From positions 905 to 64,904 of the forward strand of contig SXSK01000318.1 in NCBI GenBank assembly GCA_005793375.1: a stretch of 64,000 nucleotides of DNA, written 5' to 3'. The stretch comes from Verrucomicrobiales bacterium. Its GTDB lineage: Bacteria; Verrucomicrobiota; Verrucomicrobiia; Limisphaerales; UBA9464. Shown here in pieces: positions 3,549 to 59,405 of this stretch. Both the position numbers and the translations under genes were made by a program. The stretch's first letter is position 1; each line of letters begins with the position of its first letter. A model generated the notes under the pieces. It had not been told where the DNA came from and made no database searches. It worked only from the letters and a program-made list of their open reading frames with translations.

Positions 3549-3555
3549 AACGATC

Positions 3556-4884: not shown

Positions 4885-4885
4885 G

Positions 4886-4920
4886 CAAACTGAACTGAAC
4901 TAAACTGAACTGAACGGAAC
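4886..4920 (+). repeat. Seven tandem NRAAC pentamers (caaac tgaac tgaac taaac tgaac tgaac ggaac) in the gspF-gspG spacer
   Basis: Read directly. The array starts just after the gspF stop codon and ends 12 nt before the gspG ATG. No Shine-Dalgarno-like sequence lies between it and the ATG. Confidence 0.9.
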
Positions 4921-4932
4921 AATCTCCAGACA

Positions 4933-9998: not shown

Positions 9999-10534
9999 AT
10001 TTCGATCCCAAGAACCGCCAGCACCTGCTCTTGATCATTGCCGCGATCGGCGTGGCGCTGCTTGCTGGAGATCGTTTGGTGCTGTCGCCGCTCGTCAAAG
10101 CGTGGCAAGACCGAACCACGCGGCTCGCGAAGTTGAGCCGTGATATAGATCAAGGCCGTCAATTGCTCCTCAGTGAACGCTCAGTTCGCGATCGATGGGA
10201 TTCCATGCGGACCAATACGCTTCCCGAGGATGTCTCGATAGCGGAAGGTGGCGTGCTAAAAGCGTTTGATCGGTGGTCGCGGGAAAGTCGCATTAGCATC
10301 ACTTCCGTGAAGCCTCAGTGGAAGCGCAATGCCGAGGATCACGTCACCCTGGAGTGCCGCGTGGATGCCTTCGGCAGTCTCAGCACCCTCGCGCGGTTCT
10401 TGTATGAAGTGGAACGCGACCCTCTCGCATTGCGCGTCGACTTGGTGGAGATCACGTCACGCGATAGCGAGGGCGCCCAACTAACCCTTGGCCTGCAGGT
10501 TAGCGGACTGCTGCTAAACCCACCGGAACTATGA
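9995..10534 (+). CDS. PilO/GspM-like bitopic platform protein
   Basis: 179 aa with N-terminal TM LLLIIAAIGVALLAG, then a coiled-coil and a small alpha/beta domain. Has a 4-nt overlap with both neighbours. Confidence 0.7.
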   Translation: MNFDPKNRQHLLLIIAAIGVALLAGDRLVLSPLVKAWQDRTTRLAKLSRDIDQGRQLLLSERSVRDRWDSMRTNTLPEDVSIAEGGVLKAFDRWSRESRISITSVKPQWKRNAEDHVTLECRVDAFGSLSTLARFLYEVERDPLALRVDLVEITSRDSEGAQLTLGLQVSGLLLNPPEL

Positions 10535-13150: not shown

Positions 13151-13194
13151 TCTGAGATGTCCTGATTCCTCAAAAATATTTTCACGCCAAATTC

Positions 13195-28378: not shown

Positions 28379-28579
28379 GTGAGACGCTGGGGCTGGCATT
28401 GGGGCGTGCCTAGGTTTGTTCTCCAGGCAGGTGGCTGCGATTCAGGCTAGACAACTGAAGGCCAACTGGTTTAGTGCTTAGGCGAAGTTCCACCAAACTG
28501 TTATCGGGGCTGAATCGTCTGCCCAGGATCGCCTGAGTTACCGACCTCTGCCTCCACGTTGCGTTCTTCACTTAAAGCT

Positions 28580-29395
<816 letters not shown>

Positions 29396-29452
29396 ACCCT
29401 TTGGCACTTGTGTGGCGAAACCAGGTGCTTCCCTAAGTCATCCCAACGGCAT

Positions 29453-32326
29453 ATGCTGGCGCCGATGGGTCCGATCAAACCAACCGGTAGAAATGGGTGG
29501 ATCCTGGCGTCTATGGTGGGCTTGGCCGCGTGGGTATTGTTTCGGGCACACGGCGCCTCCTCGGACCTGGACTTGGACTATCGACAGGAGGTCAAGCCCG
29601 TCTTGAAGGCCCGCTGTTTCGCGTGTCATGGCGCGTTGAAGCAAAAGTCGGAACTGCGGCTGGACACAGCGGCCGCGATTCATCGGGGGAGCAAGAATGG
29701 CCCCGTGATTCTGACGAACGCTGTCGAGACCAGTGTTCTATTGAAGCGTCTGGTGACCGGGGACAAGGAGGAGCGCATGCCACCGGAAGGTGAGCCATTG
29801 ACGGCGTTAGAGATCGAGGCGGTTCGACGTTGGATTGCCTCAGGAGCCCCAACCCCTCCAGGCGAATTGCAGGAGCCGGACCCCCGTCGGCACTGGGCCT
29901 TTCAACAACCGGTCCGGCCTGAGATCCCGGAAGTTTCGGTGCCTGGCTTTGAAATCCGGAACCCCATCGATGCGTTCTTGGCAGCCACGTGGCGTCAGCA
30001 AGGCATGGTGCCGGCGCCTCCCGCCGACCAGAGCCAGTGGCTTCGGCGGGTCCATGTCGATTTAATCGGATTGCCGCCGACCGTGGAGCAGCGTCGGCAA
30101 TTTCTGGACGACAACCGCCCGGACGCCCGCGAGCGGGTGGTGGAGCAACTGCTGAATTCACCCAGACACGGTGAGCGATGGGCGCGTCATTGGATGGATG
30201 TTTGGCGCTACGCGGATTGGTTTGGGCGTCGACACGTGCCGGATGTGTGGAATTCCGCGCCCCAGATTTGGCGGTGGCGGGATTGGATCGTGCGTTCCTT
30301 GAACGACGACAAGGGCTACGATCGAATGATTCAGGAGATGTTGGCCGGTGATGAGTTGGCGCCAGAGAACCCGGAGATCACGGTGGCCACGGGGTTCCTG
30401 GTTCGGAATTGGTATGCGCTGAACCCGAACCAGTGGATGCGCGAGAACGTGGAACATACCGCCAAAGCATTCCTCGGACTCACCCTCAATTGCGCCCATT
30501 GCCACGATCATAAATACGACCCCATCACCCAGATGGATTACTTCCGTTTTCGCGCATTCTTCGAGCCACTGGGTCTACGTCAGGATTGGGTGGCAGGCGA
30601 ATCGGATCCGGGTCCGTTTCAGAAGTACGATTACTCCAGCCTGCGGAAGGTGGTGAAACATGGCACGGTTCAAGTATTCGATGAAATGCCATCGGCCAAG
30701 ACGTACATTTACGAGGGTGGCGACGAACGTGCATTCCTGCCCGGGAAACCGTCGGCAGATCCGGCCGTGCCGGCGTTCCTTTCCCACTCGGCCGTTCCCA
30801 TCAAGCCGGTGTCGCTACCTACCGACGTGAGTTACCCCGGGCTCAAATCATTTATTCGCGAAGCACGGCTGCGTGACACCACCGCAACGATGGAGTCGGC
30901 AATCAGCGCCTTAGGGGAAGCAACTCGTCAACGCACCATGATTCTGGAGGAAACGGCGCGGGACTTGTCGAGCAAGGCCATGAGCAACTTAGCGCGGGCG
31001 GAAACCACATGGCTGCGAGCCTCCAATCGGGTGGCGCTCACCCGGGCTGAGTCGGAGTCAATCCAGGCCCGGCTCGACGCGGACCTGGCCGTGCACCGAG
31101 CGGGTGCCAAAGATACCAATGACGTCGTAAAACGTGCCTCTCAGGCAGAGCGAGCCGTGGCCGTTGTCAAAGTTCGGCAAAAGCTATCTGAGACTCGGGC
31201 ATCCTTGAGTTTGTTGGAGCAGGAACAGGGCTTGGCAGCCGCCCGTCGAAGTTTGGCGGGTTTGGATGCGGCCAAGGAAACCAAGCAACAGGCGGAAAAC
31301 GAGGCGCTGCGCAAGAAGCTGCTGGATCAGTTGGCTATGGAGGAAAAGGCCCTGCAGGCGGCCGAGGTAGCGCTCGGCACTAACTCCACACGATACACCG
31401 CTCTCAGCCCCATATATCCCTCGCAAAGCACCGGACGCCGCTTGTCGCTCGTTCGCTGGATGGCGCAGCGAGACAATCCCCTGGTGGCGCGGGTTGCGGT
31501 CAATCATGTGTGGAAGTGGCATTTCCACGAACCCTTGGTGAAATCGGTTTATGACTTCGGACGCAACGGGGCTCCGCCTTCCCATCCCGAATTGCTCGAC
31601 TGGCTCGCCGTGGAGTTGATGGAGCATCAGTGGAGCTTGAAGCACCTCCATCGATTGATCACGTCCAGCAGTGCGTACGGCCTTGCCAGCATGCGGCGTC
31701 GAACATCGCCGGATCGTTTATCGATCTCCAATCAGCCGCCCGTGTTGTTATCGGATCCGGATCCGGATTCCGACCTCGAGAATCGATGGTTTTCGCGCAT
31801 GAATGTGGGACGTTTGGAGTCGGAGATTGTCCGGGACGCGGTATTGTTCGTGGCTGGTTCGCTGGATCTCAAGGCGGGAGGGTATCCTCTGGAAAACACC
31901 GCCGCCGATACGCTTCCGCAACGGAGCCTGTATTTTGAATGTTTTCCGGAGGAAGGGGGTCACGATGCCTTTACGACGATGTTTGATCCGCCCGATCCGG
32001 GCGAGTGCTATCGGCGCACACGAACGATCATTCCGCAACAGGCGTTGGCGCTTTCGAACAGCCAGTTCTTGGAGACTCAAAGCACTCGATTGGCGGAACG
32101 TTTGTGGAACGGTGAGACCAATCAGGGTCAGTCCGTAGAGGCGTTTATTTCGGTGGTTTTTGAGCGGATTCTGAATCGGTCAGCCACGCCGGCTGAACTC
32201 CAACTCGGGTTTGACTATCTGGGAGGATCCGGTGGCGGAGCGTTGGCCAAACCGGAAGCCGCCAAGCGCCGGATTAGCTTTGTCCGGGCACTGTTTAATC
32301 ATAACGATTTTGTGAGCGTGCGTTGA
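29453..32326 (+). CDS. PSCyt1 (CxxCH) / DUF1549 (PSCyt2) / DUF1553 (PSD1) protein
   Basis: CFACHGALKQKSELRLD heme-binding motif. DUF1549 block NPIDAFL...RRVHVDLIGLPPT...LLNSPRHGERWARHWMDVWRYAD...CAHCHDHKYDPI, and DUF1553 block RLSLVRWM...NPLVARVAVNHVWKWHF...GEC. Confidence 0.9.
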   Translation: MLAPMGPIKPTGRNGWILASMVGLAAWVLFRAHGASSDLDLDYRQEVKPVLKARCFACHGALKQKSELRLDTAAAIHRGSKNGPVILTNAVETSVLLKRLVTGDKEERMPPEGEPLTALEIEAVRRWIASGAPTPPGELQEPDPRRHWAFQQPVRPEIPEVSVPGFEIRNPIDAFLAATWRQQGMVPAPPADQSQWLRRVHVDLIGLPPTVEQRRQFLDDNRPDARERVVEQLLNSPRHGERWARHWMDVWRYADWFGRRHVPDVWNSAPQIWRWRDWIVRSLNDDKGYDRMIQEMLAGDELAPENPEITVATGFLVRNWYALNPNQWMRENVEHTAKAFLGLTLNCAHCHDHKYDPITQMDYFRFRAFFEPLGLRQDWVAGESDPGPFQKYDYSSLRKVVKHGTVQVFDEMPSAKTYIYEGGDERAFLPGKPSADPAVPAFLSHSAVPIKPVSLPTDVSYPGLKSFIREARLRDTTATMESAISALGEATRQRTMILEETARDLSSKAMSNLARAETTWLRASNRVALTRAESESIQARLDADLAVHRAGAKDTNDVVKRASQAERAVAVVKVRQKLSETRASLSLLEQEQGLAAARRSLAGLDAAKETKQQAENEALRKKLLDQLAMEEKALQAAEVALGTNSTRYTALSPIYPSQSTGRRLSLVRWMAQRDNPLVARVAVNHVWKWHFHEPLVKSVYDFGRNGAPPSHPELLDWLAVELMEHQWSLKHLHRLITSSSAYGLASMRRRTSPDRLSISNQPPVLLSDPDPDSDLENRWFSRMNVGRLESEIVRDAVLFVAGSLDLKAGGYPLENTAADTLPQRSLYFECFPEEGGHDAFTTMFDPPDPGECYRRTRTIIPQQALALSNSQFLETQSTRLAERLWNGETNQGQSVEAFISVVFERILNRSATPAELQLGFDYLGGSGGGALAKPEAAKRRISFVRALFNHNDFVSVR

Positions 32327-32963: not shown

Positions 32964-33872
32964 ATGACCTTGCGACGAACAGCCATCCGGTTGCTTCAGT
33001 GCGTGTTGGGATTTGCGGTGGTTGCGGGGTCGATCGCCGGTGGCTTGTGGATCTATTTTCATCCAGCGTTTCGATGGGAGGCGGGGATTGTGTACGGCGA
33101 GCGGCACGGCCGACCCCTGACCCTGGATGTGGTGTCACCTGAGAAGCCCAATGGACTCGGAGTGGTGCTTATGGTGAGTGGTGGGTGGAAATCCGGTACG
33201 AATTCGTTTCGAAGCTGGATGGTGGCGCCCCTGCTTCGGCGCGGGTACACGGTGTTCCCCGTGTATCATATCTCCCAGCCGACCTCGACGGTCATGGAGA
33301 TCTACGACGATGTCTCCAAGGCGGTGCGCTTGGTACGACATCGGGCCAAGGAATTCGGGGTGGACCCCGATCGCCTGGGAGTGACCGGCGGCAGCGCTGG
33401 CGGACATTTGAGCCTGATGCTCGCGACGCGAGGCGGTCCAGGACCCGCAGATGCCAAGGATCCGGTGGAGCGCGAAAGCAGTGCCGTTCAGGCCGTCGCG
33501 ATCTTCTATCCGGTCACGGATCTTCTAAATCCTGGGGAATCCACCGAGAACCTGCATGACGGAGGACCGCCTAAGAGTTTCGTGAAGGCGTTTGGGCCGC
33601 AAGCGACGAACTTGGCGGTCTGGAAGGTGATCGGCCGGGAACTGTCGCCGATTTACCATCTCCATTCCAATTCTCCACCCACCCTGATCTACCATGGTGA
33701 TGCGGACACCTTGGTGACCTTGGATCAATCTCAGCGATATCAAGCGCGAGCTCGGGAGTTCGGACGAATCGTGGAACTGGTGGTTCACCCGGGCGGCGGT
33801 CACGGTTGGCTGTCCATGCTGTGGGACATCCATGCCTTTGCCGATTGGTTCGATCGATATCTCCAAACTTGA
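32964..33872 (+). CDS. Alpha/beta hydrolase (esterase-like), N-terminal membrane anchor
   Basis: VVLMVSGGWKSG oxyanion region, nucleophile elbow GVTGGSAGGHLS, then HGDADTLV and GGGHGW. Confidence 0.8.
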   Translation: MTLRRTAIRLLQCVLGFAVVAGSIAGGLWIYFHPAFRWEAGIVYGERHGRPLTLDVVSPEKPNGLGVVLMVSGGWKSGTNSFRSWMVAPLLRRGYTVFPVYHISQPTSTVMEIYDDVSKAVRLVRHRAKEFGVDPDRLGVTGGSAGGHLSLMLATRGGPGPADAKDPVERESSAVQAVAIFYPVTDLLNPGESTENLHDGGPPKSFVKAFGPQATNLAVWKVIGRELSPIYHLHSNSPPTLIYHGDADTLVTLDQSQRYQARAREFGRIVELVVHPGGGHGWLSMLWDIHAFADWFDRYLQT

Positions 33873-33946
33873 GAGCGTGCTGGGGAGATGTGGAAAGGTC
33901 CGATTCAAATTGCGTTCGTGAATCGCAAGATCGAGCTTCCTAAGCG

Positions 33947-36304
33947 ATGGCACAGACGAGCATCCAATTTCGACCGCGTGGTACAGGCGGTGCGCCGGGA
34001 AGTGTGACGGGTGCACGCACTGAAGTTGTCATTGAGGGCATGACCTGTGGCAACTGCGCGCGGCATGCCACAGAGGCATTGCAGGGAGTGCCTGGGGTGG
34101 CGTTTGCTGTGGTAGATTTGGCGCAGGGACGTGCCACGGTTCGTTGGCATCCGAACGTCAATCTGGCACCGCAGAAATTGGTGGAAGCCGTGACGGGCGC
34201 GGGGTTTGTAGGGCGTCTCGTTAGCGCGGCAGCTATGGGGGTAACCGTTGCACCTTCAACGGCTTCAACCACGTCGACCAATCCCTGGAAACGTTCCCTG
34301 CAACTTGGAATTCCAGCCACCGCATTACTCCTCGGTGGAGATTGGTTGATGGGGTGGGGCATGCACCGCTGGTTTCATTGGGTTGGCTTTTGGGTGGCGC
34401 TGCCGGTTCAGATTCTGGCGGGTGCGGGCTTTTATCAAGGTGCTTGGCGTCAGTTAAAGGCCCGGTCGGCCAACATGGATACTCTCGTGTCGTTGGGTTC
34501 AACAGCGGCCTTTGGATTTAGTGTCTGGGCTTTGTTAACTCGCGCGGTTCCGCACCTTTTTTTCGCGGAATCGGTGACCATTCTCACGCTCATCAGCTTG
34601 GGGCATCGGTTGGAATCGGGGATGAGCACCAAGGCTGGGGAAGCTTTGCGCGTACTGCTGGAACTGTCCCCACCCAAAGCCCGAAAGCTCTCCCCCAAGC
34701 CGGGCTCACAAGCTTCGGTCGATTCTGTGGACCTCTGGACAGAGTCTGAAGTCCCGGTGGCAACTTTGGTTGTCGGAGATCGGATCGTGATTAAGCCAGG
34801 GGATCGAGTGCCAGTCGACGCCGAAGTGGTCGAGGGCCGGTCGAGTTTGGACGAATCAATGCTCACGGGAGAATCCATGCCTGTTGAAAAAGCCTTGGGG
34901 AGTTCGGTACTCGCGGGAACTTCCAATCAATCGGGTCGTTTGGTGGCTCGGGTCATGGCCACCGGTGAAGCGACCGCGTTGGCGGGCATTGTCGCCGCAG
35001 TGCAGCGTGCCCAATCGAGTCGGGCACACATCCAACGGCTCGCCGATCAAGTCAGTTCGGTCTTTGTCCCAGTGGTAATTGCCATTGCGGTACTGGCCGG
35101 ATCCCTGTGGCTGTTTATACCAGAATCGACGCGGGCCTGGCACCAGACATGGAGCGGATGGTTTTGGCACACACAGATTCCGGAATCCAATGTGGCGGCG
35201 GCTTTTTATGTGGTCTGCTCGGTACTGATCGTGGCCTGCCCCTGCGCCATGGGAATCGCCACCCCCGTGGCCCTGATGGCCGGAGTGAATGCCGCGGCAC
35301 GCCGGGGCATTTTGATTCGAGATGCCCAGGCGCTTGAGAAGTCAGGGACGGTGACGGCAATTGTCTTCGACAAGACGGGGACGCTCACCGAAGGCGCGCC
35401 AAAGGTGACCCAGGTGCACTTGTTTGGCGGATCTATCGAGCGAGCGGATGCGCTTCGATTGGCGGCATCGATGGCGCGTTCGTCGCAGCATCCCCTCAGC
35501 CAAGCGATTGCCAAATTGGATCCATCCACACTCCCGCTCGCCGATGTCGAAGAGGTGCGAGGCTCGGGCATCCAAGCCAGGCATTCGGTCTCAGGACCGA
35601 ATGGGACGCCGGTTCGGGTGAGACTGGGATCGTTGGCCTGGCTGGCAGGTGACGGCGTGGACTTGACCCCTGGTAGCGCTGCTGCCGAAATGGAATTTCA
35701 ATCCGGAGGTTCCGTAATCGGTTTATCTGTGGGTCACCAACTTATCGCACTGCTGACGGTTCGCGACACACTCAAACCGCAGGCGGTGGCATTGATTGCC
35801 GAGCTGCGCGCCCGTCCCTTCGAGCACCGCGCCTATCTGTTGTCGGGAGATCATCCACGTGCGGTGGAATTTGTCGCCCGGGAGTTGGGAGTGGACGGGT
35901 CGTTTGCGGAGGTTCGACCTGAAGAAAAGGCAGCGAAGATTCGGGAACTGCAGTCGCGAGGATTGAAAGTCGCATTTGTGGGCGATGGCATCAATGATGC
36001 ACCGGCGTTGGCGCAGGCCGACTTAGGCATTGCCGTGGCACGGGCCAGTGATGCGGCCCGTGAAGCTGCCGACATCGTCTTATTACGTTCGGATCTGACC
36101 GGGGTCCGGGATGCGTTGATGCTGTCGAGGGCGACCTTGAGGACGATTCGTCAGAATCTGTTTTGGGCGTTTTTTTACAATGCCGCGGCGGTTCCGTTGG
36201 CCGCCCTGGGTTTGCTGAGTCCGGTAGTTTGTGCACTGTCCATGGGCCTATCCGATGTGATTGTGATTGGCAATGCGTTGAGACTTTCGCGGAAAAAAGT
36301 TTGA
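33947..36304 (+). CDS. copA: Copper-translocating P1B-type ATPase
   Basis: HMA domain GMTCGNCARHATEAL, TM CPC motif (IVACPCAMGIATP), phosphorylation site FDKTGTLTEG, SQHPLS and GDGINDAPAL. Confidence 0.95.
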   Translation: MAQTSIQFRPRGTGGAPGSVTGARTEVVIEGMTCGNCARHATEALQGVPGVAFAVVDLAQGRATVRWHPNVNLAPQKLVEAVTGAGFVGRLVSAAAMGVTVAPSTASTTSTNPWKRSLQLGIPATALLLGGDWLMGWGMHRWFHWVGFWVALPVQILAGAGFYQGAWRQLKARSANMDTLVSLGSTAAFGFSVWALLTRAVPHLFFAESVTILTLISLGHRLESGMSTKAGEALRVLLELSPPKARKLSPKPGSQASVDSVDLWTESEVPVATLVVGDRIVIKPGDRVPVDAEVVEGRSSLDESMLTGESMPVEKALGSSVLAGTSNQSGRLVARVMATGEATALAGIVAAVQRAQSSRAHIQRLADQVSSVFVPVVIAIAVLAGSLWLFIPESTRAWHQTWSGWFWHTQIPESNVAAAFYVVCSVLIVACPCAMGIATPVALMAGVNAAARRGILIRDAQALEKSGTVTAIVFDKTGTLTEGAPKVTQVHLFGGSIERADALRLAASMARSSQHPLSQAIAKLDPSTLPLADVEEVRGSGIQARHSVSGPNGTPVRVRLGSLAWLAGDGVDLTPGSAAAEMEFQSGGSVIGLSVGHQLIALLTVRDTLKPQAVALIAELRARPFEHRAYLLSGDHPRAVEFVARELGVDGSFAEVRPEEKAAKIRELQSRGLKVAFVGDGINDAPALAQADLGIAVARASDAAREAADIVLLRSDLTGVRDALMLSRATLRTIRQNLFWAFFYNAAAVPLAALGLLSPVVCALSMGLSDVIVIGNALRLSRKKV

Positions 36305-36338
36305 GGACAGGATGTGATTTTGGTGTATACGTAGTCCT

Positions 36339-36656
36339 GTGAACACAATGCGCACACTTCGATCGATCCTTGTGGGTGGTATGGTTGGTGTTTCCTCCCT
36401 CGTCCTTTGGACTGGATGTTCTGAACAGAACTCATCGTCGTCGCCTGCCGCCGGTGCCGATGCGACGGCCAAGGCTTATACCTTGGACACCTGCATGGTG
36501 AGTGATGAAAAGCTCGGGTCCATGGGTGACCCGGTCATTAAGGTCTACGCGGGCCAGCAAGTGAAGTTCTGCTGCAACTCTTGTGTGAAGGATTTTGAAA
36601 AAGACCAGGCCAAGTTTCTGGCGAAGATCACTGCGGCGACTGCGGCAAAGAAATAG
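36339..36656 (+). CDS. Small lipoprotein with YHS/TRASH-like Cys motif (paralog 1)
   Basis: Signal plus lipobox-like LWTGC, then YTLDTCMVSDEKLGSMGDPVIKVYAGQQVKFCCNSCVKDFEKDQAKF, which follows a C-X25-C-X3-C pattern. The ORF opens at GTG 36339; the first ATG is at 36348. Confidence 0.75.
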   Translation: MNTMRTLRSILVGGMVGVSSLVLWTGCSEQNSSSSPAAGADATAKAYTLDTCMVSDEKLGSMGDPVIKVYAGQQVKFCCNSCVKDFEKDQAKFLAKITAATAAKK

Positions 36657-36710
36657 TTCCAACCCATTTCAATCCTTAGCTTTAAAATTTCATTCTCAAC
36701 AGTTAATACT

Positions 36711-36968
36711 ATGAAGTCAGTTCGTTCTCTGTTCGCCCTGGGTGCCTTGGCTGTTGTCTTTGCCGGATGCCAATCGCAATCGCACACCGCCACCGCTGGC
36801 GCCAAGCCCTATAAACTCAAGACTTGCATCGTCAGCGATGAGGAATTGGGTAGTATGGGAGATCCCATCGTCAAGGTGGTGAACGGGCAGGAAGTGAAGT
36901 TTTGCTGTAAGTCGTGTATCGGAGATTTCGACAAGAATCCTCAGAAGTACCTGTCGAAGGTCAAATAA
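36711..36968 (+). CDS. Small lipoprotein with YHS/TRASH-like Cys motif (paralog 2)
   Basis: Signal plus VFAGC lipobox, then YKLKTCIVSDEELGSMGDPIVKVVNGQEVKFCCKSCIGDFDKNPQKY. The mature domain is clearly homologous to the preceding ORF. Confidence 0.78.
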   Translation: MKSVRSLFALGALAVVFAGCQSQSHTATAGAKPYKLKTCIVSDEELGSMGDPIVKVVNGQEVKFCCKSCIGDFDKNPQKYLSKVK

Positions 36969-37016
36969 TTGGGTCTTGAACAGATATCCCTTTGAGGGTG
37001 TCGAATTGGAGACATT

Positions 37017-37430
37017 ATGAAACGAACCAGCGCCATCACCTTGAGCTTTTGGCTCCTTGTGGCGCAGCTCGTTTGTCTTGGCCAGCCGTTCTATGCAGCG
37101 GGCGCTGGCCGGGCTCCAAAGTGTTGTTCCAGAGCTACGCCCGCCGTTAAACTGGCTGACCAGGTTGGGTTTCCTGTATTGGCAGCCATTCCTAGGTGTT
37201 GCCATCGCGAGTGTTGCGCACGGAAGTCGGAGCCGATTTCTCAAACCGCATCACTGTTTCCGATCCCTCCCGAAACCTTGCGATTTCTTCCCAATGTGGC
37301 GTTGCTCAATTTGGCTTGGGCATTGCCGTCGCCTCCGGTTTCTTTGGCTTCTGCTGTCCCTTCCTCTGCCAGTTCCCCAAGGCAACCTTCCGTGCCTGTT
37401 TTCACTCGGCACTGTGCTTGGTTGATTTGA
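37017..37430 (+). CDS. Hypothetical secreted protein with CC motifs
   Basis: 137 aa with GGAG 6 nt upstream of the ATG and a signal-like MKRTSAITLSFWLLVAQLVCLG. Carries KCCSR and RCCHRECCARK, and a Pro/Ser-rich tail. Alternative-frame ORFs overlap it, so coding status is uncertain. Confidence 0.4.
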   Translation: MKRTSAITLSFWLLVAQLVCLGQPFYAAGAGRAPKCCSRATPAVKLADQVGFPVLAAIPRCCHRECCARKSEPISQTASLFPIPPETLRFLPNVALLNLAWALPSPPVSLASAVPSSASSPRQPSVPVFTRHCAWLI

Positions 37431-37722
37431 GTTTCCGACCCCACTGACCGTCGGTCGCCTAGTTCCTGGGCGCCCTCCGACTATTCCCTCTTGTCAGTCC
37501 GGCGTATTTCCTCGGTTTTTTCGATGGTGAAACGCCTACCGGAATTCAAACGGACACGTTCACAACGGAACGATCCGCCTTCAATGCGGCCCATAGTCAT
37601 GGGCCTCGGCTCACTATAGGCCATTAAATACCCAAGTTGAGACAATGTCCGCTGTGTCTGGCCGTTGTCGACCTGGACAGGCTTGTGGTGTGTTAAGAAA
37701 CGAATCGAAACCGAAGCAACGA

Positions 37723-37766
37723 AGAACTCAAAAGAACTGCAGAACAGAACGACAGAACGACAGAAC
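37723..37766 (+). repeat. Six AGAAC pentamers in an A-rich leader upstream of the CC-doublet lipoprotein gene
   Basis: Read directly: gaAGAACtcaaaAGAACtgcAGAACAGAACgacAGAACgacAGAACaacaaac. It ends 23 nt before ATG 37790, with no SD-like sequence. Confidence 0.85.
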
Positions 37767-37789
37767 AACAAACAAAAACCTAAATCATT

Positions 37790-38020
37790 ATGAAAACATA
37801 TATCAAATCGAGTCTGCTGGGATTGGCCTTGGGTGCGGCATGGATTGTCGCCGGGTGTGCGGCCCACGGTCATAAAGGTCACGACCATGGAACCGCAATG
37901 TGCTGCGCCCATGGAAAATGCTGTAAGAGCGAGACGTGCTGTGATGGCAGTGCGACGTGTTGCAAAACGGCACAAAGCTGCTGCGCCAAGGCGGATAGTG
38001 CTTGCTGCAAGAAATCGTAA
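37790..38020 (+). CDS. His-rich, Cys-doublet-repeat lipoprotein (metallothionein-like, periplasmic/outer-membrane-anchored)
   Basis: 76 aa: MKTYIKSSLLGLALGAAWIVAGC (lipobox VAGC), then AAHGHKGHDHG, then six CC doublets spaced 4-6 residues apart (CCAHGKCCKSETCCDGSATCCKTAQSCCAKADSACCKKS). Located between copA and cusCBA. Confidence 0.75.
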   Translation: MKTYIKSSLLGLALGAAWIVAGCAAHGHKGHDHGTAMCCAHGKCCKSETCCDGSATCCKTAQSCCAKADSACCKKS

Positions 38021-38166
38021 TGGCCTCGAGCTATGGCACTCTCGGTCGCGGGATTGGTTTGGCCGAGTCCCGCGATTTCGAACGGCGACGGAAGCTAACA
38101 TGGCGAGCCCAGGTGAGAATACACCAGTCAAGACCCCCTTTGTTGACGAGTGGGACTCGTTGTGTT

Positions 38167-39567
38167 TTGAGCCGAAGCGATAGATTTGGAGCACTGCCTC
38201 ACTTCGGACGCGTTGAAGCGACCTGCCATGGTTCAAAAGGCTGCATCGTCGTTCTGCTGGCGTTCATGGTAGGCGCCGTTTGGATGCGAGCAGCCGGGAC
38301 TGGGCAGAGTGATGAGACAGGCATGGCTTCGGTTCCCTTGACGATCGGGCTCATCGAGCAATTAAGCGATGAGATGCGAACGAATCATCCCGCATTAAAA
38401 GCGGCGCGTGGGAGGGCGACGGCGGCCATGTTCCAGGCGGAAGGTATCCGCAAATGGCAGGATCCGGGGTTCAAGCTCGGCGGCGCCGTCAACAGCGGTC
38501 GGGGTCCGGACGCGCGCGAGGAAGGGGACTTGATTTATGGCGTGGAGCAAACGCTGCCGTTGTTCGGAAAGTTGGAGGCCGTGCGTGCTGTCGCTGCTGC
38601 GGACGCGGCTACCGAGTCGGAGCGGGGCGAATTGCTGTTACAGTTGCAACGCCGCGATTTGTCCAAGGTGTTGTTTGAATTGGCACTGGCGGATCGCGCG
38701 ATTGTGTTGGGCCGCGAGGATTTGAAATGGTTGGAAACAACTCTCGAGATTGCCAATGCCCGCCTTCAGGCAGGAACGGCGACTCAATTGGATTTCATTC
38801 GGCTGCAGAACGAGCGCGCCCGACGAACCAACCAGTTGGCTACTGAGATTAGCCGCCGCGCTGAGTCGTTGGTTACCTTGAATCGGTTGCTGGCACGTCC
38901 ACCGCTGACAGCGTTTTCCATCCTGACCCTCCCCGATATTGCGCCGGCACTGGCATTCACTCCCACATTGATCCGGTACGCCACCAACTCGGAACCGCGG
39001 TTGTTGGTGGCATCCAGAGAGGTAACGGCTGCAGAAGCCCGCATACGAGCGACCCGGAAGTCGAAAATTCCCGATATGACGGTTGCTGTTCAAGGACAGC
39101 AATTCCATGGGGATGGAGGGTTTCGCCAAGGCATGGTCACCGTAGGATTCAATCTACCGTGGCTCAACGCCGGGCGTTACCGCAAAGATCTCGCTCGGGA
39201 TCAGCACCGCCATAAATCGGCGCTGCAAGACAGGGAAAGCCTGGCACTGGAGGTGGTGAACGAGATTCACCATCGAATCACATCGATTGATGCGGCGCGC
39301 CGCGAGGGCTTGCTTTATCGCGACGACATTCTCCCCAGAAGCGAACGAGCACTGGCTGTCGCCATGGCGGGTTGGACCGGGTCTTCCATGGAAGTCCGGG
39401 ATGTCCTGGAGACACGCCGGATGTTGGTGGAGGCAAAGTCCATGATCGCTCGGGCCGTTGCCATGCAATGGATTGAAATGAGCGACCTCGTTTTGTGTTG
39501 CGGACTGAGTGATTTGGAAATGCTTTTGGAACTTGGCGCCCCGGAAACTCCAGCAATAACACCATGA
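38167..39567 (+). CDS. Outer-membrane efflux protein, TolC/CusC family
   Basis: Two OEP repeats (LSDEMRTNHPALKAARG...; ...YATNSEPRLLVASREVTAAEARI...). The frame is open from 38002, but only from TTG 38167 does it give a plausible signal peptide (basic n-region, CIVVLLAFMVGAVW, MRAAG). Start uncertain (alternative ATG 38266). Confidence 0.85.
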   Translation: MSRSDRFGALPHFGRVEATCHGSKGCIVVLLAFMVGAVWMRAAGTGQSDETGMASVPLTIGLIEQLSDEMRTNHPALKAARGRATAAMFQAEGIRKWQDPGFKLGGAVNSGRGPDAREEGDLIYGVEQTLPLFGKLEAVRAVAAADAATESERGELLLQLQRRDLSKVLFELALADRAIVLGREDLKWLETTLEIANARLQAGTATQLDFIRLQNERARRTNQLATEISRRAESLVTLNRLLARPPLTAFSILTLPDIAPALAFTPTLIRYATNSEPRLLVASREVTAAEARIRATRKSKIPDMTVAVQGQQFHGDGGFRQGMVTVGFNLPWLNAGRYRKDLARDQHRHKSALQDRESLALEVVNEIHHRITSIDAARREGLLYRDDILPRSERALAVAMAGWTGSSMEVRDVLETRRMLVEAKSMIARAVAMQWIEMSDLVLCCGLSDLEMLLELGAPETPAITP

Positions 39568-41300
39568 ACACGAAATCAATTGTTGCCGTTTTCCTCGCGG
39601 TTCTAGGAGGTGTTGCGGTCGGCTGGTTTGGACGCAGCAAGATGCAACCGGAAACTACGTCGACTTCCGAGGGGTCCTCTCTGACTGCGAGTCGTCGGGT
39701 TGCATTTTATCAATCGTCCATGCATCCATGGATTAAGTCGGAAAAACCCGGCCGCTGCACGATTTGCGGAATGGAATTGGTGCCGGTTTACGAGGGGGAA
39801 ACCGGAGTGGCTTCGGATTCGAATCTGATCACCTTAAGTTCGAATTCCATCTCGGTGGTGGGTGTGCGCACGTCACCTGTGTTGCGCGGTGGGCTGCTGC
39901 GGTCCTTGCGATTTGCCGGAGTGATTGATGATGACGATTCGCGGCATCGCATCTTGAGTGCCTACGTTGATGGCCGTCTGGACGAGTTGCACGTGAACTT
40001 CACTGGGGCCGAAGTTGCAGCAGGCCAGCCGCTGGCCAAATTCTATTCACCCATGCTCCTGACGGCAGTGCGGGAGTATTTGGCGTTGTCAGCAACAGGC
40101 GGGGATGCGCTGGCGGGCCAGGCTGCTGCCCAAAGACTGAGGCAGTTTGGTTTGATGGAATCTCAAATCCAAGCTCTGCCAAAAGCGTTTGGATCTACCA
40201 ACATCCACGTGGAAATTCTTGCGCCGATTGCCGGAACGGTAGTCAAGCGACAAGTTTACGCCGGTCAATTTGTGAAGGAGGGGGAACCGCTCTTTGAAAT
40301 CGCCGACTTCAACACCATGTGGTTCAAGTTTGATGCGTACGAACGCGATCTGTCCTGGATCCAACCAGGCATGCCATTGGAGATTCGAACACCGTCGGTA
40401 CCAGGACGTGTGTTTTCGTCCCAAATACATTTCATCGATCCCAATCTCGATCCGGGCTCGCGCAGTGCCAAGGTGCGCGTTGAATTGCCCAACCCTGTGA
40501 TAAACCTTGGAGCATCACACCGGCGGCAATTCTTGCATCGAACTTATGCCGAGGCCCAGGTTGCAGTGACAATACCCGATGTCCTTCTGATCTCGCGTCA
40601 GGCCGTGTTGAATCCCGATGGACACCCCGTCGTGTTCGTCGATCGCGGGGCTGGGGCTTATGAACGACGCACCATCGTGGTGGGTCGCGCGGGCGACGTC
40701 GCTTGGGAAGTGTTGGGGGGTGTCTCTGAAGGTGACTTGGTGGTGTCGCACGGCAATCTGTTGATGGATTCCCAAGCTCAATTGGCTCGAGCAGCATCGG
40801 GCGATTTGGGGATGGAAACGGTGGTGTCACAACCGCCTTCGGCTGCGACGGCGACGGCAGACCTTGCCCCTCTCGGACGGTTTCTAGTTGCGGTGGACTC
40901 GTTGCGTCTGGCGTTGGCCTCCGATGACTTGCAGGGTTTTGTGACGAAACGCATCCAACTGACTCAAGCGATCCCCACGTTCACCTCGGATGCGGATCGA
41001 GCTCCCTGGGGAAACGTGTTGTCACAGTTGGAAGACTTTATCGCATTGCCCCAACCCACGGATCTGTTGGTCGCCCGGCAACAGTTTTTCGGATTGAGTG
41101 CCGTCATACTGGAAGCTGTCGCGCAGGCTCGAAAGCAGGATTCGGCGTTGGCACGTATCAGGATCTTCGAATGCCCGATGACCGATGGTGCGTTTCCAGG
41201 TGCCCCTAAGAAAGCCAAATGGTTTCAATGGAGCGGTCCGTTGCGGAATCCCTGGTTCGGCGAGCGCATGGCGACCTGTGGCGCCGAGGTCAAACTCTGA
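39564..41300 (+). CDS. cusB: RND periplasmic adaptor, CusB-like, with N-terminal heavy-metal-binding domain and C-terminal DUF3347-like domain
   Basis: SSMHPWIKSEKPGRCTICGMELVP (HMBD), a barrel-sandwich/beta-barrel MFP core, and a C-terminal ...IFECPMTDGAFPG...WFQWSGPLRNPWFGERMATCG. The ATG overlaps the upstream stop (ATGA). Confidence 0.9.
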   Translation: MNTKSIVAVFLAVLGGVAVGWFGRSKMQPETTSTSEGSSLTASRRVAFYQSSMHPWIKSEKPGRCTICGMELVPVYEGETGVASDSNLITLSSNSISVVGVRTSPVLRGGLLRSLRFAGVIDDDDSRHRILSAYVDGRLDELHVNFTGAEVAAGQPLAKFYSPMLLTAVREYLALSATGGDALAGQAAAQRLRQFGLMESQIQALPKAFGSTNIHVEILAPIAGTVVKRQVYAGQFVKEGEPLFEIADFNTMWFKFDAYERDLSWIQPGMPLEIRTPSVPGRVFSSQIHFIDPNLDPGSRSAKVRVELPNPVINLGASHRRQFLHRTYAEAQVAVTIPDVLLISRQAVLNPDGHPVVFVDRGAGAYERRTIVVGRAGDVAWEVLGGVSEGDLVVSHGNLLMDSQAQLARAASGDLGMETVVSQPPSAATATADLAPLGRFLVAVDSLRLALASDDLQGFVTKRIQLTQAIPTFTSDADRAPWGNVLSQLEDFIALPQPTDLLVARQQFFGLSAVILEAVAQARKQDSALARIRIFECPMTDGAFPGAPKKAKWFQWSGPLRNPWFGERMATCGAEVKL

Positions 41301-41321: not shown

Positions 41322-44300
41322 ATGATTCATCGCATCATAGAGTGGTCATTGCGGAACCGGTTCTTTGTCCTCTGCGGGACGCTCTTTCTCGTGGCTTTCG
41401 GGATTAGGGCGCTGCGGTCGACACCCGTGGACGCCATTCCCGATCTAAGTGAGAACCAAGTTTTGGTTTATGCAGACTGGTCTGGCCGAAGCCCTCAGGA
41501 AGTCGAAGATCAGGTTACCTATCCACTGAGTGTGAACCTCCAAGGACTGGCTGGCGTTCGGGCGGTGCGGGCCAATTCCATGTTTGGCTTCTCTCTTGTG
41601 ACGATCATTTTCGAAGATCGTCTGGATAACTATTTTGCACGGCAGCGGGTTAGCGAGCGCCTGAGTCTCATCGCTCCACAAATGCCGCTGGGTGTGGTGC
41701 CGCAGCTCGGCCCAGATGCAACGGGATTAGGTTGGGTTTACCAATACTATCTGCACGTTGAACCGGGTGCCCTGGGAGGCGGATCCAACACCCCTCCCAA
41801 CGGATACAGTCTGGGTCAATTGCGGTCTCTTCAGGACTTTTTCGTACGCCAACAGTTGGTCGCGGTTTCGGGGGTGGCTGAGGTAGCCAGCGTGGGTGGT
41901 TTCGTTCAGCAATATCAGATCGAGGTGGATCCCACCCGATTGCGCACAGCCGGCGTCCTGCTCTCGGAGGTCCTGGATGCCGTGGGCCGCGAGAATCGCA
42001 ATGTCGGCGGCAAGGTCATCGAAGAGAACGGTTTGGAATTCGTGGTTCGTGGCATCGCCTTGATCCGCGATGCCTCGGATCTCGAAAATATCGTGCTCGC
42101 CGAACGGAATGGCACGCCGGTGCATTTGCGCGACGTGGCTTCGGTTGAAATTGGTGGTGATTTTAGACGGGGCGCTTTGGATGTCGACGGACATGAAGTG
42201 GTGGGGGGCATTGTCGTGATGCGCACCGGCGAAAATGCCATGCGAGTAATTCAAGCCGTCAAGGAGCGGATACAGCAGATTCAGCATTCGTTGCCCCCCG
42301 GTGTTTCCGTGCGCCCGTTTTATGATCGTAGCGAATTGATTCAGCGGACCATCGATACCTTGCGACACGCCTTGGTGGAAGAAATGCTCCTCGTCACGCT
42401 GGCGCATATCCTCTTCTTGTTTCACTTCCGAAGCATTTTGATCGTCACTATCCCGCTCCCGGTCAGCATTCTCATCGCGTTTGTCCTCATGGAGGGTTTT
42501 GGAGTCTCCTCGAACATCATGTCGCTGGCCGGAATTGCTATCGCTATCGGCGTGCTCGTGGACGCAGGTATTGTGATGACGGAGAATGTCATCCGGCACT
42601 GCGAACGGGCGGAGGAAGAAAAGGCAGCTCGATTATCGTTGGAAGGTGTGAGCGTGGGGAAGGGCGGCGTGCGATTGACGATCCAGGAGACCTTGGAAGT
42701 GACGCGAGTGGCAGCACGCCAAGTGGGGCGGCCCATTTTTTTTGCCATGGGAATCATCATTCTGGCATTCGTGCCGGTGTTCGCGCTGACAGGACAGGAG
42801 GGCAAGTTGTTTCATCCTCTGGCGTTCACCAAGACGTTCGGGATGGTCGGGTCGACGATACTCGCAGTGACCTTGGTGCCGGTATTGTGCGTGGCTCTGG
42901 TTCGCGGGCCGTTTCATCGGGAGGATCAGAATTGGCTGATGCGCTTTCTACTGGCGATATATGATCCGGTATTGAATTGGGCATTGCGCTGGCGCAAGAC
43001 CGTCTTGCTTCTGGCGACAATCTTGCTGGTGATGGCGGTAGTGGTCGCCGTGGGCGTGCCGGCCACAGTGTTGAAGGCAGTTTCGCAAAGAGCTCCTCGG
43101 CTAGCGGCGCATTTGCCCCAAGGGTTCGGGCGTCAATTCATGCCTCCATTGGATGAAGGCTCACTTTTGTTCATGCCGGTCTTGCTTCCCCAGACTTCGA
43201 TTAGCGAGGTGAAACGGATCCTTTCCTGGCAGGACATGGTGCTCAAAGCCACACCGGAGGTCGCCAGCGTGGGTGGAAAATTGGGGCGCGCCGAAAGTGC
43301 CACAGACCCTGCCCCGGTGGAGATGATCGAAACCACAATTGTGCTGAAGCCGGAATGGATTTCGACGAACCGGACGGTCCTCGGTTTCGTCAAATGGCCC
43401 ACTGTCGTACGCAATCCGGCATGGCGTCCGAACATGACCATTCAGACGTTACGACAGGAACTAATGGACAAGATGACCCAGGTGCCCGGCTACGTGCCGG
43501 GGTTCTTGCAGCCGATCGAGAATCGAATCCTGATGTTAAGCACCGGGATTCGGGCTCAAGTGGGCGTGAAGTTGATGGGTGACAACCTCGAAGTGCTCAA
43601 TCGCAAGGCAATCGAAATTGCCCGGATCGTTGAGTCCGTCCCGGGAGCCATGGGCGTCTCTCCGTCGCGCACATTAGGTAAACCCTATTTGGAGATCCAG
43701 GTCGACCGTGTGGCTGCGGCGCGATTTGGTCTGGGGGCGGCGCAGATCTTGGAGGCGATTGAGGTCGGGGTTGGGGGCACGATAGTTTCGACCGCCATCG
43801 ACGGGCGTCAACGCATTCCAATCCAGGTGCGTTTGCATCGATCGGCGCGTGAGGATATCGAGAAATTGGGCGAATTGTTGGTGCGATCCCCGGGCGGAAC
43901 AGTGGTTCCACTCGGACAGGTTGCCACTATACGGCGCACTTTGGGACCGAGCGAGATCAACAGCGAAAACGGACGCCTGCGCACTTTTGTTCAGGCCAAC
44001 GTTCAAGGACGCGACCTCGGTTCCTTTGTCGCCGAAATCAAATCCCGGATGGATCGCGATGTCGTGCCGCATCTGCCACCAGGTGTGACGATTGAGTACA
44101 GCGGTGACTATGAGAACCTGCTCCGCGCGGGGCGTACACTGTTGCTGATTGTACCGGCGGTCCTATTGATCATCTTCCTGCTCCTGTACGGCATTTATCG
44201 AAGTGCGACGGAAGCGGCCCACGTCATTTTGGCTGTCCCGTTCGCGCTCACGGGTGGCGTGTTCTTGCAGGCTTTTTTGGGCTACGACTTTAGTGTGGCG

Positions 44301-44708
44301 GTCTGGGTTGGCTATATCGCCCTTTTTGGTACCGCCATTCAAACTGGCGTCGTGATGGTGGTGTATCTGGAGGAAACTCTCGAAAAGCGACGGCGTGATT
44401 GCCTGGATGCTGGACGCGAGTTCACATCCTTGGATTTGATTCAAGCGGTGAAAGATGGGGCACGTTTGCGATTGCGTCCCAAGGTGATGACCGTCGCAAC
44501 GGTTGTCGCCAGTCTGCTGCCGCTGTTTTGGAGCCATCGAACGGGGTCTGAAGTGATGAAACCACTGGCCACCCCAGTGGTGGGTGGCATGGTGAGCAGC
44601 CTGGTTCATATCTTGATTGTGACACCCGTGATCTTTGCCTGGCTGCGGGAACGTGAGCTTCGTCGAGAGAAACTGCCGACGCGTGGGTCACTTGTCATCT
44701 CGACCTAG
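41322..44708 (+). CDS. cusA: Heavy-metal efflux RND pump, CusA/CzcA family
   Basis: 1128 aa with 12-TM RND architecture. MIHRIIEWSLRNRFFVL..., AIPDLSENQVLVY... and the family-typical N-terminus and length. Neighboured by a CusB-like adaptor. Confidence 0.95.
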   Translation: MIHRIIEWSLRNRFFVLCGTLFLVAFGIRALRSTPVDAIPDLSENQVLVYADWSGRSPQEVEDQVTYPLSVNLQGLAGVRAVRANSMFGFSLVTIIFEDRLDNYFARQRVSERLSLIAPQMPLGVVPQLGPDATGLGWVYQYYLHVEPGALGGGSNTPPNGYSLGQLRSLQDFFVRQQLVAVSGVAEVASVGGFVQQYQIEVDPTRLRTAGVLLSEVLDAVGRENRNVGGKVIEENGLEFVVRGIALIRDASDLENIVLAERNGTPVHLRDVASVEIGGDFRRGALDVDGHEVVGGIVVMRTGENAMRVIQAVKERIQQIQHSLPPGVSVRPFYDRSELIQRTIDTLRHALVEEMLLVTLAHILFLFHFRSILIVTIPLPVSILIAFVLMEGFGVSSNIMSLAGIAIAIGVLVDAGIVMTENVIRHCERAEEEKAARLSLEGVSVGKGGVRLTIQETLEVTRVAARQVGRPIFFAMGIIILAFVPVFALTGQEGKLFHPLAFTKTFGMVGSTILAVTLVPVLCVALVRGPFHREDQNWLMRFLLAIYDPVLNWALRWRKTVLLLATILLVMAVVVAVGVPATVLKAVSQRAPRLAAHLPQGFGRQFMPPLDEGSLLFMPVLLPQTSISEVKRILSWQDMVLKATPEVASVGGKLGRAESATDPAPVEMIETTIVLKPEWISTNRTVLGFVKWPTVVRNPAWRPNMTIQTLRQELMDKMTQVPGYVPGFLQPIENRILMLSTGIRAQVGVKLMGDNLEVLNRKAIEIARIVESVPGAMGVSPSRTLGKPYLEIQVDRVAAARFGLGAAQILEAIEVGVGGTIVSTAIDGRQRIPIQVRLHRSAREDIEKLGELLVRSPGGTVVPLGQVATIRRTLGPSEINSENGRLRTFVQANVQGRDLGSFVAEIKSRMDRDVVPHLPPGVTIEYSGDYENLLRAGRTLLLIVPAVLLIIFLLLYGIYRSATEAAHVILAVPFALTGGVFLQAFLGYDFSVAVWVGYIALFGTAIQTGVVMVVYLEETLEKRRRDCLDAGREFTSLDLIQAVKDGARLRLRPKVMTVATVVASLLPLFWSHRTGSEVMKPLATPVVGGMVSSLVHILIVTPVIFAWLRERELRREKLPTRGSLVIST

Positions 44709-50190: not shown

Positions 50191-50654
50191 GCTGACTGGG
50201 AGCCGCAGCGGCGCGCCCCATTGGTGGTGGACGGCGCGACCCGCCACAATACTACCCTGGTTAATGGATGAGAAAATTCTCTCCAATTCGACCGGATCGA
50301 CCAGACGGAAAACCTTCCTGTCTATCGTCAGTGCCCGGCACATCAGCCTCACATTCGGTCCGGTGGGTCGATCAAAAAAGTCCCTGAATCGACGCCGGAT
50401 CAGGGGGAAATCGTGCTTGCACCGCTGCAAGCCTGCGAAGGTCGAAACCCACTCGTCCGTTGTGACCTATCCCGAAAGGCTGACCCTCTGTCCGAGAGGA
50501 ACCCTGACATCGGGTGAAGCCTTTCCTCGAACTGGAGCGGCATCAATGCTATCGTGTTCGCTGGGCCAGCCATCGGGGAGTTTAAACATGTTTTTTTGTC
50601 GCTCTGTGGAGGTAATTGACATTTCTTCATCGAAACAAGGTAGGCAAAAGCTCC

Positions 50655-59389: not shown

Positions 59390-59405
59390 GGGGAATCGGG
59401 TTGAG

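Follow-up and report, generated by a model that had tools for sequence, protein, structure and literature searches.

The stretch of DNA analyzed here (the window) comprises 64,000 nucleotides of a Verrucomicrobiales bacterium (GenBank assembly GCA_005793375.1, contig SXSK01000318.1, positions 905 to 64,904 of the forward strand). Between copA and the genes of a CusCBA-type efflux pump it carries a small gene for a predicted lipoprotein of 76 residues with six Cys-Cys doublets, which we refer to as the CC gene, and to its product as the CC protein. Judging from alignments across six lineages, the CC gene is real and is the founder of a rare, unnamed family under purifying selection, while its composition and surroundings make the product a candidate for handling Cu(I) or Ag(I) in the cell envelope. 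The gene, delimited from its translation, the invariant Cys and spacers of six lineages, the ratio of nonsynonymous to synonymous divergence (dN/dS) and the lipobox rule, has the following parts.

37790..38020, plus strand: CC-doublet lipoprotein gene (76 aa)
37790–37855, plus strand: signal peptide
37856–37858, plus strand: codon of the lipobox Cys23
37859–37900, plus strand: His-rich head
37901–38008, plus strand: six CC doublets
38009–38020, plus strand: KKS tail and stop

Sequence and architecture of the CC protein

Translation of 37790–38020 (plus strand) gives MKTYIKSSLLGLALGAAWIVAGCAAHGHKGHDHGTAMCCAHGKCCKSETCCDGSATCCKTAQSCCAKADSACCKKS, then a stop, which matches exactly the protein string in a first-pass annotation made from the DNA letters. 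That annotation had described a VAGC lipobox followed by a mature part of 54 residues with 13 Cys and 5 His, and a count of the composition bears this out: the lipobox Cys is residue 23, Cys makes up 24% of the mature part, there are 7 Lys, and Phe, Trp and Tyr are lacking altogether. The same annotation called the doublets evenly spaced, which needs correction, as the five spacers are of 4, 4, 5, 5 and 6 residues; the array is regular rather than strictly even, with a period fixed at 6–8 residues and spacer lengths that are invariant in all homologues. A short His-rich head lies beside the anchor. No other open reading frame (ORF) in the window has six CC doublets.

The same build recurs in all seven sequences of the family described below, where the mature part has 49–54 residues, 24–27% Cys, no Phe, Trp or Tyr, at most two residues from among L, I, V, M and P, a positive net charge and a Lys/Ala/Ser-rich composition. 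A lipoprotein rule of the PROSITE PS51257 type (a positive n-region, an uncharged hydrophobic h-region, a lipobox of the form [LIVMF..][..][AGS]C, and Cys at residue 15–35) is satisfied by 7/7 family sequences, each with Lys in the n-region; their lipoboxes read VAGC, FSGC, LSGC, FTGC, LTGC and FAGC, and place the Cys at position 23 or 26. From these features we infer that the CC protein is exported by the Sec pathway, lipidated at Cys23 and tethered to a membrane facing the periplasm.

On its composition, the mature protein is a flexible, hydrophilic chain that would have no hydrophobic core, presenting twelve thiols in vicinal pairs together with the His-rich head. AlphaFold returns no confident fold for it (mean predicted local distance difference test score, pLDDT, of 44.7), with just two helices of four residues each. 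This fits a chain that is disordered in the absence of metal; the model draws on a six-sequence alignment, so it is not diagnostic.

A rare family under purifying selection

Searched exhaustively with phmmer, 1.84 billion representative proteins yielded two relatives of the CC protein (E=3e-17 and 6e-13), and a profile search of 5.8 billion clusters recovered five family members, all of them 74–78 aa long, unnamed and from metagenome assemblies. Counting a near-identical variant on the homologous contig L047, the family comprises seven sequences from six lineages. The first-pass annotation had proposed looking for a family by a search of the HMMER type, and homologues with identical CC spacing are what these searches returned. 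They are approximately 57–63% identical to the window protein. Invariant among them are the lipobox Cys, the twelve doublet Cys, every spacer length and an H-x-H after the anchor, as well as K43, S47, G53, S63, K67, K74 and K75.

In the codon alignment, the proportion of synonymous differences (pS) is 0.43–0.88, with synonymous sites near saturation, against a nonsynonymous proportion (pN) of 0.10–0.28, and dN/dS is 0.14–0.51 where computable. Conserved Cys codons swap between TGC and TGT, and differences concentrate at codon position 3 (for example 8/6/24 and 11/5/27 by position), which is codon position 1 of the frame of an overlapping antisense ORF of 251 aa (37481–38236, minus strand).

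These patterns bear on the reading that there is no gene here at all, the CC ORF being either a chance occurrence or a shadow of the antisense ORF that gene callers prefer. Two observations could be taken to favor it: the codon-usage score of the CC gene is uninformative or negative, as it is in all six frames, and gene callers annotated the antisense ORF on L042–L046 (on L042 at 4619–5305, minus strand), where the CC gene itself is intact. The former is explained by the composition of the CC protein, which is so unusual that codon-usage scoring is uninformative, and dN/dS was used instead. As for the latter, the antisense ORF appears to be spurious, because the substitutions favor the CC frame and because it has no Pfam match. 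With dN/dS well under 1, third-position changes dominating in the plus frame, and the plus-strand ORF intact with equal length and motif in all lineages, we give the non-gene reading next to no chance; the invariant alignment and dN/dS effectively refute it.

Leader, hairpin and expression signals

The gene is flanked by a leader and a hairpin.

37700..37789, plus strand: A/C-rich leader without Shine-Dalgarno (SD) sequence (from sequence, Tandem Repeats Finder and folding)
37744–37770, plus strand: GAAC-containing tandem repeat, ACAGAACG in 3.4 copies (Tandem Repeats Finder)
38042..38081, plus strand: GC-rich stem-loop after the CC gene stop (from folding of the window and five homologous loci)

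The first-pass annotation had assigned the gene a dedicated SD-less GAAC leader. The leader does lack an SD sequence and is A/C-rich; the GAAC repeat, in contrast, is private to the window, as none of the homologous loci carries it. Common to the lineages is an initiation region that is SD-less and essentially unstructured: from -40 to +30 around the ATG, the minimum free energy in six lineages lies between -0.9 and -4.7 kcal/mol, and in each case the lineage's own shuffled sequences fold more stably. The spacers upstream of the gene (200–380 nt) have no 9-mer common to at least five lineages and align poorly six ways, a scan for sigma-70-like promoters found none, and an Rfam scan of 33000–40000 gave one chance-level match only. 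For one pair of contigs, the spacer between orf137 and the CC gene (L003 799–993 and L007 812–1005) is 87% identical, although the adjacent gene has diverged by 43% at synonymous sites; this exceeds neutral expectation and points to constraint on the non-coding leader.

A hairpin lies 15–70 nt past the CC stop in every lineage (in relatives at L001 1990–2026, L003 1227–1262, L004 742–768 and L042 5223–5252). The sequence varies from lineage to lineage, a U-tract is missing in most cases, and 4/6 lineages have a perfect GC-rich stem of 11–13 bp. The window hairpin is possibly a partial terminator or a 3' stabilizer between the CC gene and the pump genes. Together, the unstructured leader and the hairpin suggest that the CC gene would be expressed above the pump genes.

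A strong GC-rich hairpin past the stop in six lineages, thirteen Cys codons in 76, and a position directly 5' of the outer-membrane factor, cusB and cusA genes would also be expected if the ORF were a regulatory leader, whose Cys-codon-rich translation, with the hairpin, attenuated cusCBA according to the supply of Cys-tRNA or thiols, the peptide itself being functionless. A codon sensor would need neither the signal peptide, lipobox and His head nor the spacer residues (K43, S47, G53, S63, K67, KK74-75) and spacer lengths, all of which are under purifying selection. Moreover, 76 codons far exceed known leader peptides, the distance to the hairpin is too great and too variable for ribosome-coupled attenuation, and the downstream genes are not those of cysteine metabolism. 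We consider attenuation very improbable, and on this evidence a leader peptide is effectively excluded.

The copA/cus operon around the gene

The neighboring genes and the intervening spacer are as follows.

33947..36304, plus strand: CopA, Cu(I)-exporting P1B-type ATPase with N-terminal HMA domain (Pfam E1-E2_ATPase, HMA and Hydrolase; TIGR01511)
36339..36656, plus strand: first TRASH/YHS-like lipoprotein, lipobox WTGC, motif KFCCNSC (Pfam YHS E=5.6e-4 and TRASH E=1.1e-3, both under the gathering score)
36711..36968, plus strand: second TRASH/YHS-like lipoprotein, lipobox FAGC, motif KFCCKSC (from ORF and sequence; tblastn synteny)
37017..37430, plus strand: orf137 (from alignments; no Pfam match)
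37431–37789: spacer of 360 nt between orf137 and the CC gene
38212..39567, plus strand: outer-membrane factor, CusC/TolC-like (Pfam OEP, 7e-32; N-terminal alignment with homologues)
39564..41300, plus strand: CusB-like membrane-fusion protein with N-terminal HMBD domain, MHP...CTICGM (Pfam HlyD_D23 and HMBD; NCBIfam CusB subfamily; alignment with E. coli CusB)
41322..44708, plus strand: CusA-type heavy-metal resistance-nodulation-division pump (TIGR00914; alignment with E. coli CusA)

The position between copA and cusCBA given in the first-pass annotation stands, with the amendment that three more small genes, for the two TRASH/YHS lipoproteins and orf137, intervene after copA. The pump is of the CusCBA type, combining a CusA with the three-Met site, a CusB-type adaptor (HlyD_D23, HMBD) and an OEP outer-membrane factor. 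CopA scores 504.8 bits against NCBIfam TIGR01511 (cut-off 397), and CusA 1013.9 bits against TIGR00914 (cut-off 701). CusA is 42% identical to its E. coli counterpart, whose M573, M623 and M672 all align to Met, and 62–68% identical to CusA of metagenome-assembled genomes (MAGs) of Chthoniobacteraceae, Verrucomicrobiales, Akkermansiaceae and Opitutae, which places the window in Verrucomicrobiota. The CopA score over its cut-off, the retained Met triad of CusA and the HMBD of CusB support the assignment of the transporters of this operon to the Cu(I)/Ag(I) type. In the window CusB, the HMBD motif CTICGM stands where the E. coli protein has its N-terminal Met site. The start of the outer-membrane factor is uncertain, as its ORF is open from 38002; a GTG at approximately 38212 suits the homologues.

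A tblastn search with E. coli CusF found no significant match in the window. No regulator was seen among the window ORFs of at least 180 aa that were scanned, and no mer, ars, czc or znt genes among the scanned window ORFs or on the homologous contigs.

Among side observations, the window CusB has a C-terminal extension of approximately 170 aa ending ...FECPMTDG...CGAEVKL, in which the scan found no Pfam domain. Relatives of the tandem TRASH/YHS lipoproteins adjoin CusB in several other Verrucomicrobiota MAGs, and are thus commoner than the CC gene. Elsewhere in the window (1764–14412; 26897–32326; 57974–63365; 50616–56966) lie a type II secretion cluster (GspE, F, J, K and D-like), two DUF1501 plus PSCyt/DUF1553 pairs typical of bacteria of the Planctomycetes-Verrucomicrobia-Chlamydiae (PVC) superphylum, and a secreted giant protein of 2116 aa, none of which is related to the CC gene.

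Synteny in relatives, orf137 and TRASH fusions

The order copA, two TRASH lipoprotein genes, orf137, CC gene, hairpin, OEP, CusB, CusA is shared by the homologous contigs as far as they extend. The longest view is given by L042 (7.2 kb), with copA, two TRASH lipoprotein genes, orf139, the CC gene, OEP and CusB. L047 (4.3 kb) has orf159, the CC gene, OEP and CusB with HMBD; shorter contigs carry subsets of the same order. L004 and L005 reach from the 3' end of the orf137 homologue across the CC gene into the OEP gene, L004 starting within the last codons of that homologue. As L042 and the window have different genes 5' of copA, the conserved block begins at copA. Every homologue with visible neighbors sits in a copA/cus context. 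The first-pass annotation had named two outcomes that would speak against its proposal, namely a lack of homologues with conserved CC spacing and homologues without linkage to metal genes, and we encountered neither.

CC motifs recur in the neighbors of the CC gene: the TRASH lipoproteins have FCCxSC, and orf137 has three CC doublets. The homologues of the second TRASH/YHS lipoprotein on L001 and L048–L052 show a weak match to PF04945 (YHS). The orf137 protein is exported or N-terminally anchored, with invariant CC36-37, CC61-62 and CC66-67 (the last two forming CCxxxCC) and, within a C-terminal TRHCxxLI, an equally invariant C133. It always lies just upstream of the CC gene (L001–L007, L042–L052), and belongs to an unnamed family with 6 clusters in 5.8 billion proteins. 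Its AlphaFold model (pLDDT 51) is confident only in an N-terminal helix. On a 2337-nt contig, L053 (ENA ERZ650258), an unrelated N-terminus that is lipoprotein-like and rich in Gly, Val and Ser runs in frame into an orf137-like segment, with unrelated genes after it; at approximately 2x coverage the contig is probably an assembly chimera, and this orf137-like fragment in a different context was set aside.

In loci of two Opitutaceae MAGs, L014 (approximately 1560–2015) and L015 (7522–8004), a low-complexity N-terminal extension rich in Cys, Lys, Ala and Asp and containing CC doublets is fused to a TRASH protein directly upstream of CusB. We see in this extension a possible counterpart, in fused form, of the separately encoded CC lipoprotein, and the fusion would tie sequence of the CC type functionally to accessory proteins of Cus.

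Distribution

The family is sparse in every collection searched. A word-indexed search with the single CC sequence gave no match, and an exact look-up of the window protein no record. The family profile found no member on the contigs of 185,579 species-representative genomes, and nothing on metagenome contigs beyond the already known L004, while tblastn against a plasmid collection gave no match. In all, the family has been seen in approximately 20 sequencing runs; runs with the family are ERR10034879-98, SRR28520281-89, DRR545331, SRR36515762 and SRR26424693. Among 33 related cus loci from species-representative genomes there is no CC-array ORF and no orf137 homologue, while a TRASH/YHS protein is kept in several of them. 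On this distribution, the CC gene and orf137 appear as a pair to form an accessory module of one narrow, so far uncultured lineage.

Comparison with known systems

None of the six aligned family members matches any Pfam model at E ≤ 10, including those of the described metallothionein families (among them the prokaryotic SmtA type), and the CC protein has no match in NCBIfam and no significant one among PDB sequences. This agrees with the statement in the first-pass annotation that it does not resemble CusF, CopC, CopZ or Csp. As it appears from these searches, the CC protein belongs to none of the CusF, CopZ/HMA, CopC, Csp, CopG, described metallothionein, granulin and chlamydial OmcA families. 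Two further candidates were rejected, namely a precursor of a ribosomally synthesized and post-translationally modified peptide (the neighborhood encodes no modifying enzymes, and what precedes the mature part is a lipoprotein signal) and an Fe-S or haem binder (the CC protein has no CxxC or CxxCH motifs).

Bacterial metallothioneins (SmtA/BmtA, and MymT of Mycobacterium tuberculosis) are, like the CC protein, small, very Cys-rich, free of aromatics and expected to fold on metal, with roles in Cu/Zn buffering (PMC7558416). In composition the CC protein falls within their operational class (low mass, approximately 15–30% Cys, few or no aromatics). However, they are cytosolic and lack a signal peptide or lipid anchor, and they have CxC/CxxC motifs and zinc-finger-like folds, whereas the array of the CC protein consists purely of CC doublets, and the searches showed no sequence similarity to them. 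CusF of E. coli cusCFBA is likewise small, periplasmic and encoded inside a cus operon, and as a Cu(I) acceptor feeding CusB/CusA it has the role that we propose for the CC protein. It is a soluble protein with an oligonucleotide/oligosaccharide-binding (OB) fold and a Met2-His site capped by Trp, without Cys, whereas the mature CC chain has no Trp, 0–1 Met and a predicted lipid anchor; the two are not homologous.

Csp1 of methanotrophs is exported and Cys-rich, has 13 Cys as the CC protein does, and stores 13 Cu(I) per monomer (PMC7558416). In contrast to the CC protein, with its Sec signal and lipobox, a mature chain of 54 aa (too short for a Csp), no twin-arginine motif and no predicted bundle, Csp1 is a pre-folded, tetrameric four-helix bundle of approximately 120 aa exported by the twin-arginine (Tat) pathway. 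CopG is periplasmic, has an adjacent Cys pair in its Cu-cluster motif and is linked to copA/cus (PMC7558416). It has a thioredoxin-like domain in which Met ligands accompany a single CxCC, and a part in Cu(I)/Cu(II) redox chemistry has been proposed for it; it shows no similarity to the CC protein, which lacks CxCC. The simplest model for each CC doublet is the surface vicinal pair Cys22-Cys23 of COX17, which holds a single Cu(I) ion in an oxidising compartment, the mitochondrial intermembrane space (PMC7582641), although COX17 is not homologous, being a eukaryotic, non-lipoprotein CHCH fold with two disulfides and a single CC site.

SilE and PcoE are disordered periplasmic metal sponges encoded with Cu/Ag efflux genes (PMC5008109), which is how the CC protein is proposed to work. 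They differ from it in their Met and His ligands, lack of Cys, solubility, length (approximately 140 aa) and helicity upon Ag(I) binding. CopL of Staphylococcus aureus and Bacillus is a Gram-positive protein with larger folded domains, is not Cys-rich and is not homologous to the CC protein. Like the CC protein, it is lipid-anchored, extracytoplasmic and encoded beside a copper P-type ATPase, and it adds to copper resistance (PMC5947656). The 9-kDa OmcA of Chlamydiae is, again like the CC protein, a very small Cys-rich lipoprotein, from the same PVC superphylum (PMC2811131). However, OmcA is a structural part of a disulfide cross-linked outer-membrane complex, is paired with OmcB and is unlinked to metal genes; it shows no similarity to the CC protein, which has no adjacent omcB.

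If the CC protein is the Cu(I)/Ag(I) binder proposed below, it would resemble metallothioneins, CusF and SilE in its working while being a member of none of those families. That a thiolate-rich lipoprotein is exported to the envelope was called unexpected in the first-pass annotation, which overstates the case, given the precedents of Csp1 and CopG (PMC7558416), COX17 (PMC7582641) and OmcA (PMC2811131). Thiolate chemistry in the envelope is also not peculiar to this protein at the locus itself, as its neighbors are Cys-based too (the HMBD CxxC of CusB, the FCCxSC of the TRASH proteins and the CC doublets of orf137).

Proposed role of the CC protein

By a small degree, we lean towards a role for the CC protein between CopA and CusCBA, as a lipid-anchored buffer or chaperone that binds Cu(I)/Ag(I) by its thiolates. 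Exported by Sec, lipidated at Cys23 and tethered in the periplasm, it would bind several Cu(I) or Ag(I) through its twelve thiolates, either in two-coordinate CC sites of the COX17 kind, six at most, or in Cu-thiolate clusters of the metallothionein type. It would buffer the Cu(I) that CopA expels into the periplasm and pass it to CusB/CusA, standing in for CusF, and its probable partners would be orf137 and the two TRASH lipoproteins, which are envelope proteins with CC motifs as well.

Several points weigh against this role. Metal binding by the CC protein is something that we infer from composition and context only, and the low-confidence AlphaFold model, built as it is on six sequences, is not diagnostic. 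No copper-responsive regulator or conserved operator turned up among the ORFs scanned or in the promoter and leader-motif scans. The family is confined to a narrow, uncultured lineage, and its absence from the 33 related cus loci implies that the CC protein is dispensable for Cus function in general. The main difficulty of the Cu(I) reading is the redox state of periplasmic Cys: twelve free thiols on an unfolded, Sec-exported chain would meet the periplasmic oxidation machinery, and the Cys of adjacent doublets could form disulfides of the CxxxxC type, so that the resting state may be oxidised. Finally, vicinal Cys pairs are also the classic ligands of Hg(II) and As(III), as in MerT, MerA and ArsD, which leaves more than one candidate metal.

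This last point leads to the alternative that the CC protein is a tethered thiolate binder of another ligand, Hg(II), Cd(II), Zn(II) or As(III)/Sb(III). A His-rich head such as this one would likewise be compatible with Zn(II), Ni(II) or Cu(II), and metallothioneins are generally promiscuous (PMC7558416). The flanking transporters, on the other hand, have Cu(I)/Ag(I) signatures in the TIGR01511 score of CopA and the Met triad of CusA, and neither the scanned ORFs nor the homologous contigs contain mer, ars, czc or znt genes; we think this alternative quite improbable.

The redox difficulty, for its part, raises the alternative that the protein works through disulfides, whether as an OmcA-like cross-linked component of the envelope, a granulin-like laddered mini-fold, or a sacrificial thiol/disulfide redox buffer. 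In the last version, the CC protein would reduce Cu(II) to Cu(I) exportable by CusCBA, or would shield envelope proteins from copper-catalysed mis-oxidation. The twelve non-anchor Cys are an even number and could pair fully, Sec delivers them into a normally oxidising compartment, and the strictly fixed spacer lengths would suit a defined disulfide ladder. OmcA sets a precedent in the PVC superphylum for a small Cys-rich lipoprotein with a disulfide role (PMC2811131), and periplasmic Cys sites such as that of ScoI need a dedicated reductase once oxidised (the case of ScoI and TlpA; PMC6669012). However, there is no similarity at E ≤ 10 to OmcA (Pfam Chlam_OMP3), granulin or any disulfide-rich fold, and no OmcB-like partner, the immediate neighbors of the CC gene being orf137 and the OEP gene. 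The mature chain lacks the framework of hydrophobic, aromatic, Pro or conserved Gly residues usual in disulfide-rich mini-folds, AlphaFold gives no compact fold, and a purely structural role would leave both the position in copA/cus and the conserved His head unexplained. On balance we judge a disulfide-based function unlikely, while giving it more credit than a role with another metal.

Returning to the proposed role with Cu(I)/Ag(I), a stronger version of it can be formulated. In that version the CC peptide would hold at least six Cu(I) or Ag(I) ions, which would make it the first metallothionein of natural origin with a lipid anchor and a periplasmic location. Joined by orf137 and the TRASH lipoproteins, it would convey Cu(I) from CopA to CusCBA along an all-thiolate (vicinal-dithiol) relay, in place of the Met-based CusF route of Proteobacteria. 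We regard this version as conceivable but doubtful.

Implications

From a methodological point of view, the CC family is under-counted in protein databases because gene callers annotate the antisense ORF instead, and spurious antisense calls hide small genes of the CC type, so that such families are under-counted in general. The mature domain of the CC protein is just 54 residues long, which makes its synthesis feasible.

Reviewed bacterial metallothioneins are cytosolic, and copper handling in the envelope of model organisms relies mainly on Met and His (CusF, SilE, PcoE). Metallothioneins have been engineered onto bacterial surfaces for metal removal (PMC5572434); if our proposal is true, the CC lipoprotein would be a natural counterpart of these surface-displayed proteins. 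It would also raise the question of how the exported thiols of the CC protein stay reduced in the periplasm, and would mean that some diderm bacteria buffer periplasmic Cu(I) by metallothionein-like chemistry.

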